Shown here in pieces: positions 39,001 through 45,000 of a DNA stretch of 64,000 bases. Position numbers: made by a program. Numbering within the stretch: the stretch's first letter is position 1; every line of letters starts with the position of its first letter. The stretch comes from an uncultured Planctomycetota bacterium (GTDB lineage: Bacteria; Planctomycetota; Planctomycetia; Gemmatales; Gemmataceae): contig CAWKHF010000006.1 of the NCBI GenBank assembly GCA_963849325.1, forward strand, positions 192,001-256,000, written 5' to 3'.

Positions 39001-42000
39001 GACTTCTCCTACAACATCGTCAAAGACCCGGTCCACATCCACGACTTCCACGCCACCGTGCTGCACCTGCTGGGCTTCGACCACCAGCGCTTCACCTACC
39101 GCTACCAGGGCCTGGACCAGAAGCTGACCGGCGTGGAGCCGGCGCGGGTGGTCAAGGAGTTGCTGGCGTGATGGCGCGTTATCGGTTAACGGAGCCCGCA
39201 GCGTCAGCGAGGGAGCTTCGGCCCTCGCTGACGCTGCGGGCTCCGAGGAGAATGGATCAACCCTCGCTCACCCGCGGGCCCCGAGCATCTTCTGAAACCT
39301 CGCCAGCACGGCTTGCAGATACTCTGGCTCCACCGGCTTGAGCAAGTGCATGTCGATCCCCGACTCGGCACAGCGCCGCCGGTCTTCCGCCTGTCCGAAG
39401 CCGGTCACGGCGATGACCAACGGCGTCTTGCGCGGGCGAGGGCCGATCAGCCGTCGGGCCACCTCGTAGCCGCTCATCCCCGGGAGACCGATGTCGAGCA
39501 GCACCACGTCCGGCTCGTGGGTCCGTACGCTCTCCAGAGCGGCCGGGCCATTCGCCACGGTCTCCACGACGTGCCCGTACATGCGGAGCAACATCGCCAG
39601 GCTCAGGGCGCCGTCGGCGTTGTCTTCCACGACGAGGATGTGCAGCCCGGCACCATTGACGGGGGCACTCATGGTTTGAACTCCTGCCGATAGGGTGTCC
39701 ATCGGAATAGCCTCGCGCACTCTCGATGTCTATCACGGGCAGAATGTTCATCATCACAGAAGTATCGTTTTCGTCTGTCGGAAGTCCGACACAGGAGCGG
39801 ATTTCGTTGGGAACTGCCGTTTGCCCAAAGCCCCGTGCCGTGTAGAGTAATGGAAGACTCGTGGCTGAAATCATCACCCATTAGACGCCGGACTACTCTC
39901 GGGAGTCCTGTCGGTGCCATCGGTGGTCCTTTTCTGGATAACCGAGGCACCCATGCCAACCGCGAAACCACCCCCCGCGCAGCCCACCAACCGTCTTCTG
40001 GCCCTTCTGCCGCCAGCCGAGTACCGGCGCCTTTCCGGCCACCTGCAAACCGTCTCCCTACCCGTGAAGCAAGTCCTTTATAAAGCCCGCTCGCCCATCG
40101 ATTACGTTTATTTCCCCGTCCGAGGCATCGTCTCGGCCATGACGATCATGGCAGACGGCCGGGCCATTGAGGTGGCCACGATCGGCAACGAGGGCATGGC
40201 GGGCCTGACGGCCTTCATCGGCGGCGAATCGTCGGCCAACGAGGTGATGGTGCAAGTGTCGGGCGAGGCCGTGCGGATGAGGGCGGCAACGCTGACCGAG
40301 GAGTGCGGCCGGGACGGCCCGTTACGACGACTCCTCATCCTCTACAACACGGCCTTTGCCACGCAGGTTTCGTACTCGGTGGCCTGCAACGGCCTGCACA
40401 AGGTCGAACAACGCTGCTGCCGTTGGCTGCTGATGACGCAAGACCGCGTAGGCTCCGACGTGCTGCCGCTCACGCATGAGTTTCTGTCGATCATGCTCGG
40501 CGTGCAGCGTTCGAGCGTCACGGAGGTCCTACATCCGCTCCAGGAACGGGGCCTGGTCCGCAACAGCCGGGGCCAGATCACGGTGAGGGACCGCCCCGGC
40601 CTGGAAGCCACTTCCTGCGAGTGTTACCGGGTCGTCAAGGACGAGTTCTCCCGCCTGTTCGGCTCCCAAGTTTCGCCGCGACGCGCAGCGGAGCGCGAGA
40701 CGCGCTCCGCTGCGCGTCGCGGCTAAACGAAGTGGTGCGCTCACGAAGCGTTGACAACGTCCGTCCCCCGAGACGGTTTGCGTTTCCGCGGTCGGACGCC
40801 GCCACGTTTACTACCAGGAGGCGGAGGGACGGGACTCGGCGACGGTTCGGAGGGGACTTCGCGCAGCGCGACGATGTTCAGCCAGTGGCGAAACTCCAGC
40901 GTGCGCAGGCAGAGCGGACAGCGCAGGCGCGGCAAGTGCTCGTGGAAGAACGCCTTGACGCGCAGCCGGATCGTACGCACCGGACAGGGCGCGTGCGGGC
41001 ACGTCCACTCGCCCTCGAAACACGCCGGATGATCCGGTTTGTCGGCCGGTACTTCCGTATAAATGCGATCCATCAAGGCGCTGGCCGGCTGCACGCCCTC
41101 CAACGGCGGCACTACGCGGTAACATTTCGTCATTCGCATTCTCCCCGGTATGGGTAGGCGGACAACTCCTCCAGGTAGCGCTCGATGTCGGCGGCGCACC
41201 AGCGCGTGCTGCGGCGATGCGGATGTACCGGCGCCGGCAGCAGGGCCAACGCCGTCCAGCGCCACACCGTTCGTTCGCTGATCGACAACCGCCGCGCCAC
41301 GTCGCGCACGGTCAGCAAATCCGGTGAGATCGAGGGTGGCGAGGGCATGAGTGACCTGAAGAAAAAACTCGTTCGCGGACGTTGGCTGGGATCGACGCGC
41401 GGAAAACAATCCCGAGGATACTGTACAATTGTTCATGTTGCAAGGGCTTTGTTGCCAAACTTCCGCTTGTTGCAAAACCGATCCGGTTTGTCGCAAAACC
41501 GTCCGCCTGGAGAACTGGCAACAATTGTTGACAATTCGGCTTGACACATATACAGATGTTGGGTAATTTCTTTCCTGGACAATCCGCAGACTCAGGATGA
41601 GTCCGGCAGATGATTCGCTATAGAGGGTTGTGGTCTTTGCCGAAGGCTCCGAGAGCCGAACTGGCGATTGTCCGTGCCGCAGTAGGCGAAGTGGATTCAT
41701 AAGATTGCCCAGGCGAGCCTGCTGTGAGAACGTGACGAAGTGCCGCATCGGTAGGGCGAATTCTCCCCCCGCCCGCGCTTCTCTTTGAAGCAGTCTATTG
41801 CTGGCGCGAAACCACGAGAGCAAGGGGAATAACAGTACCCTTGACCAGTGGCTTTGCGCCGATTTCTTCTTTGGCCACTGGCAAGGGAAAGCCAGAGGCC
41901 AATCATGTATCGCAAATCTCGTCAAGTAACGGAACTGCTCGGTATCAGCTATTGGAAGCTGGTTTCGATGCTGCGCTCCGGTAAGCTCCCACAGCCACAG

Positions 42001-45000
42001 AAAGACGCGAGTGGCGACCTGATATTGTCTAGCCGCGATGTTGCCAATGCGCGTAAGGCGCTGGGGATCGACCGCCGCAAGCGGCCACGGCCTCGGAGTG
42101 CCATCATCACAGGCCCGGAGGATGGTAGATAGGGAAAAGACCCGGCAACGTCGGCCACCAACTGACAGGAAGGAACCGACGCGCCGGGGAGTGCGGGCGT
42201 GGCGAAAATGGTAAACGCAGCGGTTTAGCAAACCGCCGTGGTTTTCACCACTTGGGAGTTCGATCCTCCCCGCCCGCATTTCTTTCTTACGTTCTTTTTC
42301 GGACTTTGAGAAGTTGAAAAGCCTAACGAGCGAACCTTGCGGTTGCTCGCCGCCGGCGTAATCGTAGCGCAATTGAAGGGTATCTGTAGTCCGCTTCTCG
42401 GTCAAAGACGCATGAAAAAAATAGACCCAAACCCATTGCTGCCATTTACTTGCATCGATCTCCTGTATATAATTACAGCAGACAAAAAGAAAGCCTCCGC
42501 CGTTGCTAGTAACAACGCCGGAGGCAGATGCAACCGGCGCGGTAACGCCAGAAGCACCCTCGAAAGCCATTCTAGCGTTCCCGCCCCGGACAGGGGAAGG
42601 GAACAATCCGTGGACATCCGCGAACAGAAAGCCGTTGAGCTTGCCGACCGAGGCCGCGTCGTCAAGCGGCCGAACGGTTGGCTCATCTACTCCCTTAACA
42701 GCTCCGAAAAGTATTTCGTCACCGTGTTGCCACTGTCCTGTACTTGCGCGGATTTCGAGCTGCGGCAAGAGCCGTGCAAGCATGTCCTTGCCGTGCAAAT
42801 TACCCTGTCCCGTGAAGCCAGCGGTTCTCTCACCGAGCAGAGCACGGAGACGCCGCCGATCAACTGGCCGCGAAAAACCTACCAACAGGATTGGCCGAAC
42901 TACGACGCCGCGCAGGAAAACGAGAAAAGAGAGTTTCGCTATCTCTTGTCCGACTTGTGCAGTACCATTCCGCAGCCCGAACCCAAGGGCGGGACGAAGG
43001 GCGGCAGACCGGCCGCGCTTCTGTCCGACGTGATTTTCGCCAGCGTCTTCAAGGTCTATTCGGGCCTGTCCGGTCGGCGTTTCAACACCGACCTGGAAGA
43101 AACTCAAGAGCGCGGCTTCGTCTCTGCCGTCGTTCACCACAGCAGGATTGCCCGTTGCCTGGAGGACGAGGAAACAACTCCGCTCCTCGTCCGCCTCATC
43201 GAAGCGAGCGCTCTGCCGTTCCGGGCCATTGAGACGGAATTCGCCGTGGACAGCAGCGGCTTTTCGTCGTGCAAGTTCGACCGCTGGTACAGCGTCAAGT
43301 GGGGCCGCGTCATGTCGAAGCATTCGTGGGTCAAGGTCCACGTTATCTGCGGCAGTACTACCCACGTCGTTACCAGCGTCATCGTCGGGACCAAAGACTC
43401 TTCGGATGCTCCGCAATTCGCTCCCCTCGTAAAGACGACGGCCCGAAACTTCACCATCGGTCAAGCGAGCGCCGACAAGGCGTATGCGTCGGCCGAAAAC
43501 TTTGAAATCGCGGAGGAGTGCGGCGGCACTCCCTACATCGCCTTCAAGAGCAATGCGACGGGAGCGGTCGGCGGCGTTTATGAGCGCATGTACCACCTGT
43601 TTTGCTTGAACAAGGAAGACTACCTCCACCATTACCATCGACGAAGCAACGTGGAGTCCGTCTTCAGCGCCGTCAAGCGCCTGTTCGCCGACGCCGTGCG
43701 GAGCAAGCACGAAACCGCGATGAAGAACGAGGCTCTGTGCAAGCTGCTCGCCTACAACATTACCCTGCTGGTTCACGCGATCTACGAGCTTGGTCTTGAG
43801 CCTCGGTTCGCGGATGAACACGACGAACCCCCTTTCATCTTGCCGATGGTTCGGCCCGGTTAGCGGCTCCGGGGTTTTGCAACAGAATACCGGCCTGTTG
43901 CTAAACTGCTGATCCTGTTGCAAAACCTCTGTTGCTAAACTGGTTTGGCAACAAAGCCATGTTGCAAGAGAAAAAAATTGACTGCGGACGGATGGCGCGA
44001 GGTGGCACGAAATGGCGGCAAATGACAGGAAGGGCGGGGACCGGACTTCGTTTTGCCCGAGGGGACGGCTACCATGAGCGGGGAGGTGAGTATGAATGAA
44101 TTACCCGCTCCGCCGGATGCGGCCGGCGATCCCGAGTCCGTGGAACTGCTGCGGGCCTGGGTCGTGCGCGAGACGCTGCAATGCTCGCTGCAAGCCGATG
44201 TCTTCCCCGACCCCGGCACCTGGGGCGCCGTCCTGGCCGACGTGGTTCGCTACGTCGCCAGCGCCGTCGAGCAGCAGGACGGCACCCCCGCCGCCCAGAC
44301 GGCTCGGCGCATCCTCGATGTGTTCGCCGAGGAGATGCGCTCCTCTCCCGATGAAGGAGCGACCCCCACAGAGCCTGAAGCGTAAGCGAAGAGTATCCCT
44401 TCTTCGCTTACGCTTCAGGCTGTTAGCGCATCCCGGACGCCGGCCGCTCCGACGCCTTGCGCAGGCGCTGGTCGGGGCCGTTGTTTCCACGCCTTGACGT
44501 CCTCTTGCAGCACCTGGACCGCCTTCGTCAACTGCACGTCCACGCCGCGCGGCATCTGGCCCGGCTCGGGCCAAACGATGGGATCGGGCACGGCGCCGTT
44601 CAACTCCATGTCCTCGCCGTCGTTGACGAGGAACCAGCCGCGGTACGGTACGCGGATCAGGCCGACGTCCATGATGAGTGCCGCTCCGGTGCTGACGACG
44701 CCGCCGGCGGTGGGCACGCCGACGAGCCGGCCGCGCTTCAGCGTTTTGATGGCGTGACTGAAAATCTCGGCGTTGCTGAAGCTGTTCTGGTTGCACAGCA
44801 CGACGATGGGCTTGTTCCAGGTGGCGTAGATCTTGCGGTCGTGCGGGTAGCCGGGTCCGCCGCCGCGCGGCACGGTGACGGCGTGGACCGGCTGCGTCAG
44901 GGCCGTCAGCAGGTGGTCCGCCGTGTTGCCGCCGCCGTTCTCGCGCACGTCGATGACCAGGCCGTCCTTGCCGGCGCCGACGGCGTACAACTGTTCCTCG

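Follow-up and report, generated by a model that had tools for sequence, protein, structure and literature searches.

An insertion sequence of 2,514 bp, here called element A, occupies positions 41445-43958 of the window (the whole 64,000-nt stretch of DNA that was analysed) and carries, inside its terminal inverted repeats, a class II tRNA gene whose body derives from tRNA-Leu and whose anticodon is AGC. The host is a soil planctomycete. It is an intact member of a widespread SWIM + DDE family of the IS4/IS5 superfamily, in which a tRNA slot on the transposase strand is a conserved accessory feature spanning several phyla. The initial annotation had described element A as a transposon bearing a tRNA with mismatched body and anticodon; this observation was confirmed and the interpretation is supported, but the annotation understated the phenomenon. 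Our best reading, with a probability of about 0.5, is that the slot tRNAs would be chargeable missense or nonsense suppressors carried as cargo. Wrong-anticodon tRNAs on such transposons may cause misreading of particular codons.

The ends of element A consist of the following features:

41435-41444, unstranded: target-site duplication, left copy, ATGTTGCAAG; present as a single copy in the G009 and G002 empty sites
41445-41460, + strand: left terminal inverted repeat, GGCTTTGTTGCCAAAC; 16/16 complementary to the right end
41449-41501, + strand: three left subterminal repeats, TGTTGC(C/A)AAAC, from repeat analysis
43873-43942, - strand: right subterminal repeats, from repeat analysis
43943-43958, - strand: right terminal inverted repeat, pairing with the left one
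43959-43968, unstranded: target-site duplication, right copy, on the same evidence as the left

Three features show that element A, its tRNA included, is a bounded mobile unit: the paired inverted repeats, the target duplication of 10 bp, and the uninterrupted empty sites of the congeners G009 and G002, which in alignment to the element hold a single ATGTTACAAG. The claim that the 16-bp repeats are unique was borne out, since GGCTTTGTTGCCAAAC occurs in the 8.16-Mb genome only at the two ends of element A. Ends of its relatives likewise begin with GGCTTTG or GACTTTG. The subterminal repeats, three per end with the consensus TGTTGC[A/T/C]AAAC, are probably transposase binding sites; related elements each have their own repeat word, also found at both ends. 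A tRNA within inverted repeat and duplication boundaries was also found in the elements of G002 and L039 and in element B of the host genome.

Element B (C5:716346-719634) has the 15-bp inverted repeats, the 9-bp duplication ACATTATTA and the class I tRNA(GCU) that had been annotated; GCU is a Ser anticodon, and we know of no bacterial tRNA-Ser with a class I body. The two decayed copies were also recovered, one at C6:447206-448251 with tRNA(GGU) ~150 nt upstream, and the other at C2:190700-191681 with tRNA(UUA) 990 nt upstream. The Rfam tRNA scores of these other three tRNAs were reproduced (60.3, 59.2 and 52.7 bits). The tRNA(GGU) (C6:448563-448637), which adjoins a decayed transposase of the family, has a G-1:C73 pair and GUG at positions 35-37.

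The interior of element A comprises the following features:

41905-42132, + strand: accessory 75-aa ORF; weak match to HTH_17, not conserved in element B
42141-42189, + strand: conserved hairpin directly 5' of the tRNA slot; fold of -25 kcal/mol, z = -3.7
42193-42278, + strand: class II tRNA(AGC), tRNA-Leu-derived; 7/5 cloverleaf with U33 and A37, covariation
42279-42302, + strand: T-rich trailer 3' of the acceptor stem; T-runs also follow the tRNA in B, G002, L087, G090 and L090
42445-42473, + strand: promoter-like site of the transposase, TTTACT-17-TATAAT; 10/12 matches
42493-42525, + strand: first hairpin of the conserved transposase leader, from comparison and folding
42577-42604, + strand: leader hairpin in which the ribosome-binding stretch GGAAGGG is paired; leader fold z = -4.1
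42610-43863, + strand: transposase, 417 aa, N-terminal SWIM zinc finger and DDE_Tnp_1 domain
43119-43154, unstranded: protospacer within the transposase gene

The transposase matches PF01609 (76.4 bits) and PF04434 (33.5 bits), in agreement with the annotated domains. The label "IS4-family" was imprecise: among curated models the best match was NCBIfam IS5_2 (103 bits against a cut-off of 140), IS4_1 scored 33.7 bits against 115, and both remained below cut-off. The protospacer matches a spacer of the host's own CRISPR (C1:449523-449558) at 35/36 positions, as had been noted in outline, and the array of that spacer contains a 24-nt repeat word 208 times. The HTH_17 match of the 75-aa ORF (E = 0.061, 14 bits) falls under the cut-off of 27, and the ORF had no match in NCBIfam.

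ARAGORN called the tRNA gene as Ala(agc) at 42192-42279, and the Rfam tRNA model scored 53.3 bits at 42193-42278 (gathering score 29), the value given by the annotation. The gene is 86 nt long, lies on the transposase strand 331 nt upstream of the transposase, and begins ~3 nt after the end of the conserved hairpin. Its A73, Leu-type D-arm, G3:C70 pair, which is not the Ala identity pair, and nearest relatives show a body derived from tRNA-Leu(UAA), consistent with the Leu-like assignment made before. In a model search of the host genome the next matches were the host tRNA-Leu genes (64.1, 60.3 and 59.3 bits), above tRNA-Ser (57.0), and across 150 family genomes all 27 next-best loci fetched were canonical tRNA-Leu(UAA) without a nearby transposase. 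Whole-length identity to host tRNA-Leu is 66-69%, lower than the 72-77% similarity first reported. The same body carries the anticodon UUC in G002, as annotated, while the variant with UGG was not found among the loci searched; in L040 the anticodon is UUA, a single base from UAA. The T-rich trailer looks terminator-like, and a motif scan found no sigma-70-type promoter upstream of the tRNA.

The slot was surveyed in 140 full-length loci of the family, drawn from metagenomes and from Planctomycetota, Acidobacteriota and Chloroflexota. ARAGORN detected a tRNA in 20 of them. In each case it ends 130-451 nt upstream of the transposase, and none lay between 452 and 1300 nt; 0.23 would be expected from the density of other tRNAs in these loci. 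A relaxed scan raised the number of tRNA or tRNA-like genes in the same interval to 25/140, with 0/140 on the reverse strand and 1/140 inside the gene as controls. Among IMG/VR loci, 4 of the 36 scanned had a slot tRNA. The other 115 of the 140 family loci carry none, in line with the annotation, and presence is scattered over the transposase tree.

The slot is bordered upstream by the conserved hairpin and downstream by the promoter and leader that belong to the transposase, and its position and flanks are conserved even where the tRNA body has been exchanged. The hairpin is kept in A, B, G002 and G006 despite the different bodies between the flanks, and the TTTACT-17-TATAAT-type motif is kept in B, G002 and G006. 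The first leader hairpin, which matched no Rfam family, shows by eye compensatory stem changes among A, B, G002, G006, L087, L054 and L082. The bodies are Leu-, Ser/Sec/allo-, His- and Arg-like, including an 8/4 tRNA(UAU) in L106, His-like tRNAs with anticodons GUU and UGU in L126 and L090, and the annotated Sec-like tRNA(UAG) of the G006 element (Rfam tRNA-Sec 54.5 bits, threshold 47). The discriminator follows the body (A73 in Leu-like, G73 in Ser-like, G-1:C73 in His-like tRNAs). CCA is encoded in Acidobacteriota and Chloroflexota elements and absent from Gemmataceae elements, a pattern that in this small sample resembles the host tRNAs of the same loci.

A tRNA gene placed just 5' of the transposase promoter and followed by a T-run could work for the element in cis. 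It might be a terminator or insulator that keeps outside transcription away from this promoter, an RNase P/Z processing signal, or an attachment site for tRNA-targeting integrases. An int-alpA RNA motif, typical of integrative elements, lies upstream of the tRNA in L121 and L133, and integrases commonly target the tRNA genes for Leu, Ser, Arg, Thr and Sec. However, neither a terminator nor a processing site requires the D-arm, the anticodon stem, U33 or A37 to be conserved, a separate promoter 3' of the T-run serves the transposase, and about four fifths of the elements lack a tRNA. The search of element A revealed neither an integrase gene nor an att-like duplicate of the tRNA 3' half aligning beyond ~20 nt. 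We regard a role in cis as very unlikely.

The mismatch between body and anticodon was general, with 0/16 class II bodies examined having a matching anticodon; 12 carried anticodons for class I amino acids or stop codons and four were Leu/Ser swaps. In the Leu-like group (n = 8), 99.5% of 199 cells were paired and 15/25 pairs had changed on both sides; 0/500 shuffles reached these values and slid controls were 45-62% paired. U8, A14, G18, G19, U33, A37, the T-loop and A73 were invariant, while positions 34 and 35 were the most variable unpaired columns (1.75 and 1.56 bits, mean 0.41). The eight members have eight distinct anticodons, none of them for Leu. These patterns point to real tRNAs under selection in the Leu-like group.

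Neutral or decaying passengers, that is, captured host genes whose anticodons mutated once selection for decoding was lost, would fit the scattered distribution and the tRNA-free majority, as well as the degenerate copies and the two of four host-genome tRNAs that adjoin broken transposases. This explanation is nevertheless unlikely, as compensatory changes have preserved every tRNA helix among elements that share only 42-62% transposase identity. Tertiary and identity nucleotides are invariant with the anticodon alone hypervariable, the complete lack of matched class II bodies is not predicted by drift from a matched ancestor, and position and flanks persist despite body exchange.

Under the suppressor reading, the tRNA of element A would be transcribed as its own unit, ending at the T-run, and matured as host tRNAs are. 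Bacterial LeuRS recognises A73, the D-arm and the tertiary core rather than the anticodon, and Ala identity is defined by G3:U70. LeuRS would therefore be expected to charge this tRNA with leucine, if the E. coli identity rules apply to a planctomycete, and AlaRS would not, because G3:U70 is absent. The charged tRNA could pair with GCU (A34:U, Watson-Crick) in competition with the host tRNA-Ala(GGC), with low-level insertion of Leu for Ala as the predicted outcome. Sister elements may apply the same principle to Leu-, Ser/Sec/allo- and His-like bodies, for which the synthetase takes little account of the anticodon, and to Arg-like bodies that keep C35; stop codons would be among their targets. 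Transposition does not require the cargo, because most family members lack it; as a guess, the benefit to element or host could be a mobile, dosage-limited mistranslation or suppressor trait.

Strong activity of the element A tRNA should be costly, as GCU is not rare in the host genome (14.3 per 1000 codons, 12% of Ala codons). As the annotation had stated, the transposases show no recoding, which was confirmed in 19 elements. They are also not adapted to their own tRNA: cognate codons occur at conserved standard residues in 19/19, including SWIM cysteines and Asp codons, so that a tRNA decoding them efficiently would harm the transposase of its own element. Apparent impairment of some slot tRNAs, with C33 (L255 and L278), an 8-nt anticodon loop (L258) or a score under the Rfam threshold (L106, L061 and L091), also counts against a translational use, as do the lack of a sigma-70-type promoter in the motif scan and the gap of only ~3 nt between hairpin and tRNA.

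The unadapted transposases are among the observations that could fit a tRNA-shaped RNA with a non-translational role, charged or sensed uncharged, whose anticodon does not read codons. Possible roles are those of a regulator or a toxic component linked to the small RHH/HTH regulators of the element, or of an aminoacyl donor. RHH-type or Zn-ribbon small ORFs lie between tRNA and transposase in L054, L082, G090 and L133, and some members have C33, the 8-nt loop or a very long extra arm. Published tests also speak in part against translational use: in E. coli, six allo-tRNA(UAU) variants failed to suppress and two were lethal to the cells, and a G-1 tRNA(GGU) from soil metatranscriptomes, sharing its G-1:C73 and GUG at 35-37 with the host tRNA(GGU), was charged by E. 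coli HisRS and inserted no His at ACC in E. coli (PMC5389517). On the other side, the E. coli tests relied on foreign hosts and synthetases, and other allo-tRNAs did decode there (PMC7609411), inserting Ser or Ala according to body and not anticodon (PMC5389517, PMC7609411). No partner site was found for the anticodon: comparison with the loop of the leader hairpin, with the subterminal repeats and with the target duplication showed no covariation. Invariant U33 and A37, a compensated anticodon stem and strong variation only at 34-36 in the Leu-like group form the pattern that a decoding tRNA, and not a scaffold, should show. The non-translational role is possible but doubtful.

Several known systems come close to the slot tRNAs, and the phenomenon overlaps published work on allo-tRNAs and G-1 tRNA(GGU) (PMC5389517). 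Allo-tRNAs occur naturally in bacteria and have a long variable arm and Ser or Ala body identity; their anticodons, like those of the slot tRNAs, are mismatched to the body, and they are highly diverse (35 codons) (Mukai et al. 2017, NAR; PMC5389517). Their defining feature is an acceptor branch of 8/4 or 9/3, and the slot tRNA(UAU) of L106 is likewise 8/4, whereas the element A tRNA has the canonical 7/5 branch and is tRNA-Leu-derived; the available text of that paper, supplementary figures apart, names no IS family, fixed slot, inverted repeat and duplication boundaries or Leu-type body (PMC5389517). The published G-1 "tRNA1" is polycistronic and partly 8/4, and its linkage to the SWIM + DDE transposase family is not described in the same text (PMC5389517).

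In Streptomyces, the hybrid tRNA-ProX/ProRSx tRNAs also have a body identity, Pro, that differs from the anticodon, on a class I body with a dedicated synthetase paralogue next door; the words "transpos" and "mobile" are absent from the available text (PMC10404621). Element A differs in its Leu body and IS carrier, and no synthetase gene lies inside it. In a paper preceding the tRNA-ProX work, tRNA-ProA with anticodon AGC is said to read GCU, with mistranslation reportedly shown by experiment. Mistranslating anticodon variants of tRNA-Ser, -Leu and -Ala in yeast CUG clades and in humans (PMC11415595) follow the same principle, but are eukaryotic chromosomal genes and neither bacterial transposon cargo nor part of an exchangeable slot. 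Insertion sequences with passenger genes and the tRNA arrays of phages, plasmids and ICEs are, as here, mobile elements with extra genes, including tRNAs. To our knowledge, the IS passenger genes reported so far are protein-coding, and phage and ICE tRNAs normally have matched body and anticodon and supplement host decoding.

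Element A, an insertion sequence found within the window, carries a tRNA gene and a transposase gene, with the following features:

41445-43958: element A, 2,514 bp, between its inverted repeats
42193-42278, transposase strand: tRNA gene of 86 nt, 331 nt upstream of the transposase
42445-42473: promoter-like site TTTACT-17-TATAAT, belonging to the transposase
42526-42550: mini-ORF of 5 codons (M-Q-P-A-R-stop), immediately downstream of the first leader hairpin, which reads GGAGG on its 3' side
42610-43863: transposase ORF of 417 aa

The perfect 16-bp inverted repeat GGCTTTGTTGCCAAAC forms both ends of element A and is absent elsewhere in the 8.16-Mb assembly, and the direct repeat ATGTTGCAAG flanks both ends. 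The genomes of two congeners have an empty site, where one ATGTTACAAG stands between the joined left and right flanks; the whole 2.5 kb therefore came in as one insertion. The initial annotation had described a transposon, and an insertion sequence, an autonomous DNA transposon, is borne out by the inverted repeats, target-site duplication, transposase gene and empty site in relatives, all of which are present. The genome contains one copy of the element. The word TGTTGC(A/T/C)AAAC (11-14 nt) occurs in three copies at each end, and this subterminal word differs from one related element to the next; the ends of relatives read GGCTTTG or GACTTTG, with duplications of 9-10 bp. The inverted repeat may resemble IS903 ends; one annotated IS5-family plasmid copy was checked for such ends and GGCTTTG was not found on it. 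A solo end like that of element A (GGCTTTGTTGCCGAAC plus two subterminal repeats) lies at C5:61572-61626 of the same genome, 410 bp from a tRNA-Ser(GGA) gene.

A spacer of the host CRISPR array matches the element A transposase gene at 35 of 36 positions, with one mismatch, and is so self-targeting; the array (C1:435205-456152) is very large, with a 24-nt repeat word present 208 times. The motif TGACAGGAAGG, found in the pre-tRNA hairpin and again 60 nt past the right end, was judged a coincidence, the outside copy being ordinary flank that is present in relatives too. For a candidate second, decayed tRNA upstream, the similarity of repeat D3 (41767-41782) ends within about 20 nt and the predicted fold of 41560-41790 is no stronger than that of shuffled sequence (z = -0.8). 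Outside the element, positions 40675-40723 form a perfect palindrome with a 23-bp stem (z = -7.3), part of a ~60-nt repeat that recurs many times, in either orientation, here and in congeners, and so REP- or MITE-like.

The transposase combines a SWIM zinc finger (PF04434, 33.5 bits) at its N-terminus with a DDE_Tnp_1 domain (PF01609, 76.4 bits). It scored 33.7 bits with the curated IS4 model (NCBIfam transpos_IS4_1, cut-off 115), and the top-scoring curated model, NCBIfam transpos_IS5_2, gave 103.4 bits (cut-off 140); the nearest annotated plasmid relatives, at 21-30% identity, are labelled 'IS5 family transposase'. Residues Y342, R345, E349 and K356 are invariant in an alignment of 13 transposases and correspond to Y-(2)-R-(3)-E-(6)-K, the IS4 signature, which is common to IS5-type enzymes and so does not separate the two families. 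The earlier assignment to the IS4 family thus stands as regards the domain and the signature, but with both curated models under their cut-offs that label is too precise. The transposase belongs to the IS4/IS5 superfamily, as a separate and very common group of its own: 3,112 proteins matched it at E <= 1e-30 among 8,000 candidates scored, closer relatives (60-83% identity) are present in metagenomes, and GTDB genome contigs place the family in Alphaproteobacteria, Verrucomicrobiota and other phyla as well.

The transposase leader is structured (z = -4.1) and its last hairpin pairs the ribosome-binding stretch, while the promoter and first leader hairpin are conserved in distant relatives with compensatory changes. 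No Rfam family matched the leader or the left arm of element A. By eye, similar leader mini-ORFs were seen in element B (a second complete element, C5:716346-719634) and in the elements of the related genomes G002 and G006, and none in the related locus L087. Element B also contains, inside its inverted repeats and downstream of the transposase, a 251-aa ORF with a phosphoribosyltransferase domain (C5:718494-719249; L239:2695-3447).

The tRNA of element A scored 53.3 bits with Rfam RF00005, against a gathering threshold of 29, with a cloverleaf backed by covariation, and ARAGORN assigned it the anticodon AGC. Its cloverleaf is canonical (7/5), and a variable stem of 5 bp places it in class II; U8, A14, G18, G19, U33, A37, a TTCGA T-loop and discriminator A73 are present. 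Its D-arm, GCG / AAAAUGGUAAA / CGC, agrees in length and pattern with that of host tRNA-Leu and differs from those of host tRNA-Ser and tRNA-Tyr. Under the tRNA-Leu identity rules established in E. coli, the body has the expected long variable arm, A73, 3-bp D-stem and 11-nt D-loop with A14, A15, G18 and G19. Position 3:70 is G:C, so the alanine-identity pair G3:U70, present in the three regular 74-nt host tRNA-Ala genes read (GGC, UGC, CGC), is absent; G3:C70 and the class II body do not fit the tRNA-Ala suggested by the anticodon.

Five element-borne homologues served to build a covariance model, which was run on this genome and 150 family genomes. The next-best matches in this genome were host tRNA-Leu(GAG) (64.1 bits), Leu(CAG) (60.3) and Leu(UAG) (59.3), then Ser(UGA) (57.0). 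In the 150 family genomes three element tRNAs scored 102-108 bits, and all 27 further loci fetched were canonical tRNA-Leu(UAA) genes with no transposase within 1.5 kb. The element A body thus derives from tRNA-Leu(UAA), with only 66-69% identity to host tRNA-Leu over its whole length.

Other unusual tRNA genes were seen in this genome. A canonical-looking tRNA-Leu(CAA) at C6:820794-820903 (L235:1295-1404), missed by ARAGORN (Rfam tRNA 48.9 bits), has a ~26-nt insertion in the anticodon loop, well below the length of a group I intron. Window positions 47938-48031 hold a gene for tRNA-Sec (Rfam 72 bits). Four dense arrays of 3-14 unusual tRNA genes lie outside the window (C1:515629-516193, C4:433741-435175, C12:838476-839555 and C5:1106033-1106278); they include 74-nt 'class I' tRNA-Leu(CAA/UAA) and look like phage or mobile-element tRNA arrays.

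The position of the tRNA upstream of the transposase, here called the slot, recurs across the family. Loci were pooled from family genomes, GTDB genome contigs and metagenomes: 188 were oriented, 155 of these had a full-length transposase match, and 140 of these had at least 700 nt of upstream sequence. ARAGORN found a same-strand tRNA ending 130-451 nt upstream of the transposase in 20/140, against a chance expectation of 0.23 given how densely the ten remaining tRNAs occur in the pooled loci, and none at 452-1300 nt upstream in the same 140. When long extra arms were tolerated, a tRNA or tRNA-like gene was found in the slot in 25/140 loci (controls: 0/140 on the opposite strand, 1/140 inside the gene); the tRNA-likes thereby added in L081, L086 and L191 scored 53.8-57.9 bits, over the Rfam tRNA threshold. 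Slot tRNAs were also found in two Dehalococcoidia loci with shorter transposase matches (L079 and L085) and in 4 of 36 scanned loci on IMG/VR contigs. Their hosts are Gemmataceae and other Planctomycetota, Acidobacteriota and Chloroflexota; by contig title, the 12 tRNA-bearing loci on genome contigs (L081 and L086 counted) were Acidobacteriota (7), Gemmataceae (3) and Dehalococcoidia (2). The tRNA lies within inverted repeat and duplication boundaries in element A, element B and the elements of G002 and L039. An int-alpA RNA motif (RF02996) was seen ~700 nt upstream of the slot tRNA at L121:2562-2630 (55.2 bits) and L133:70-139 (45.4 bits), followed in each case by an ORF of 169-188 aa of unknown family.

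Bodies and anticodons of the slot tRNAs and of a related tRNA of the genome under study.
Leu-like class II, A73; 8 members; AGC, UUC, CCC, UUA, UGA, UCC, GUC, GCC
Leu-like class II, ninth member, IMG/VR locus; UGC
Ser-/Sec-/allo-like class II, G73; 8 members; UAG x2, UAU, ACA, UAA, GCA x3
His-like, G-1:C73; GUU, UGU; GGU in the genome under study
Class I nearest tRNA-Arg, A20; GCU x2, CCC, CGU, ACC

None of 16 class II bodies has an anticodon of the body's own amino acid, and in 12 of the 16 the anticodon is for a stop codon or for an amino acid never found on class II tRNAs in bacteria. The mismatch of the two GCU tRNAs, which have class I bodies, is evident from architecture alone; the element B tRNA is 78% identical to host tRNA-Arg(ACG). 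The tRNA(UAG) of the G006 element passes the Rfam tRNA-Sec model. The class I tRNAs of L143, L146, L157 and L091 and the tRNA(UUA) on C2 were assigned to no body group. Downstream of the metagenomic transposase of L157 (4338-4497) there is a pair of neighbouring tRNAs, one with anticodon ACU (A34) and the other with CUA (amber suppressor). A slot tRNA-like at 1788-1862, identical in two IMG/VR contigs (L258 and L259), recalls frameshift-suppressor tRNAs by its anticodon loop of 8 nt and its non-canonical T-loop.

The eight Leu-like tRNAs bear marks of selection. Of 199 stem cells, 99.5% are paired and both sides have changed in 15/25 pairs, a combination of pairing and covariation reached by 0/500 shuffles; slid partners were 45-62% paired. 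U33 and A37 are invariant, and the most variable unpaired columns are anticodon positions 34 (1.75 bits) and 35 (1.56 bits), against a mean of 0.41. Bodies are 78-83% identical where the transposases of the elements share 46-47%, while in one close pair this is reversed (tRNA 81%, transposase 91%), the tRNA having diverged faster. In the transposase tree the tRNA-bearing elements are scattered and sister elements can have different bodies. Alignment of element A, G002, G006 and element B showed conserved flanks with the body between them swapped; the same was seen in a clade of Acidobacteriota, whose members have either a His-like tRNA of 72 nt or Ser-like tRNAs of 106-113 nt at one and the same place. 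Judged from these sequences, the slot behaves like a cassette.

LeuRS, SerRS and HisRS, and ArgRS if C35 is kept, make little or no use of the anticodon in E. coli. The principle of anticodon-independent charging is restated in a passage of PMC11415595. Bodies served by anticodon-blind synthetases, a discriminator that goes with the body, and U33 and A37 without variation are consistent with tRNAs that can be charged and that read codons through the new anticodon, a reading to which we give a probability of about one half; the element A tRNA would then insert Leu at GCU.

Several observations count against decoding. The transposases of 19 elements show no adaptation to their own tRNAs: as the initial annotation had stated, their genes give no sign of recoding, cognate codons standing at the standard residue, and the body's amino acid has a mean frequency of 0.00-0.11 at those columns. 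The sole hint of recoding comes from L130, where two Cys codons fall in columns with Ser as the consensus. GCU is fairly common in the genome (12% of Ala codons), AGC and ACC are major codons, and no clear bias towards rare codons was seen. No sigma-70-type promoter was found for the element A tRNA, and some slot tRNAs look impaired. Taken together, the evidence for and against therefore leaves decoding at even odds, makes a tRNA-like RNA that is charged or sensed and acts outside translation a distinctly less probable alternative, and assigns the remaining probability to passenger or cis-acting readings.

Three specific roles for the anticodon loop were rejected. For pairing with subterminal repeats, TTGCTAA occurs in two right-end repeats of element A, with no match in G002, element B or L039. 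For a T-box-like specifier in the leader hairpin, element A and L087 have an identical loop (CUAGUAA) with anticodons AGC and CCC. For steering of target choice, the duplications of G002 and L039 lack complementarity to the anticodon loops.

A broader proposal can be made, which we regard as improbable: an exchangeable tRNA cassette with its anticodon under diversifying selection would be a mobile codon-reassignment module, causing low-level codon-specific mistranslation or stop read-through in any host entered, to the element's gain. The gain might come from mistranslation stress that raises mutation or recombination, or from occupying proteases that limit the transposase; both have E. coli precedents. 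If true, this would be the first known transposon with a tool that rewrites the host genetic code. If the tRNAs do not decode, the transposon would be maintaining a charged tRNA-like RNA, a type of accessory RNA new to transposons. The function of allo-tRNAs and G-1 tRNA(GGU) can now be tested in a simple setting, with a single tRNA, transposase and reporter. As a natural catalogue of anticodon-blind scaffolds, the chassis set (Leu, Ser, His, and Arg with C35) is of interest to genetic-code engineering.

Natural tRNAs in which body and anticodon disagree are rare and are raw material of genetic-code change. The nearest known systems are tRNA-ProX/ProRSx and, from Mukai et al. (PMC5389517), the allo-tRNAs and irregular G-1 tRNAs. 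Published experiments on these relatives point both for and against decoding. According to passages of PMC5389517 and PMC7609411, two allo-tRNAs put Ser at Leu codons in E. coli; PMC5389517 also describes a G-1 tRNA(GGU) from metatranscriptomes that was charged by HisRS and did not decode ACC, and allo-tRNA(UAU), of which six variants gave no suppression and two were lethal to cells. Allo-tRNAs have a 12-bp acceptor branch of 8/4 or 9/3, whereas the element A tRNA is 7/5; the tRNA(UAU) of L106, in the same slot, is 8/4. tRNA-ProX is a hybrid tRNA beside a dedicated synthetase paralogue, whereas element A has, besides the transposase, only an ORF of 75 aa. Searches of the literature for mismatched tRNAs borne by an IS or encoded by a transposon yielded only allo-tRNA papers, one of which, PMC5389517, may give more of the genomic context in its supplementary figures than in its text. 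As far as these searches show, four features are new: a bounded, demonstrably transposed IS as carrier, a fixed and exchangeable slot, canonical tRNA-Leu-derived bodies in the cargo, and selective hypervariability of the anticodon. The slot bodies are those of anticodon-blind synthetases and the anticodon is the fastest-changing part of the molecule. Such a carrier suggests that mistranslation or suppression at the level of codons can spread horizontally. The allo-tRNAs and the G-1 tRNA(GGU), so far unexplained, thereby gain a genetic context: known mismatched tRNAs are chromosomal or of unclear context, whereas here the vehicle is defined, a transposing IS family present in several phyla with one fixed slot.
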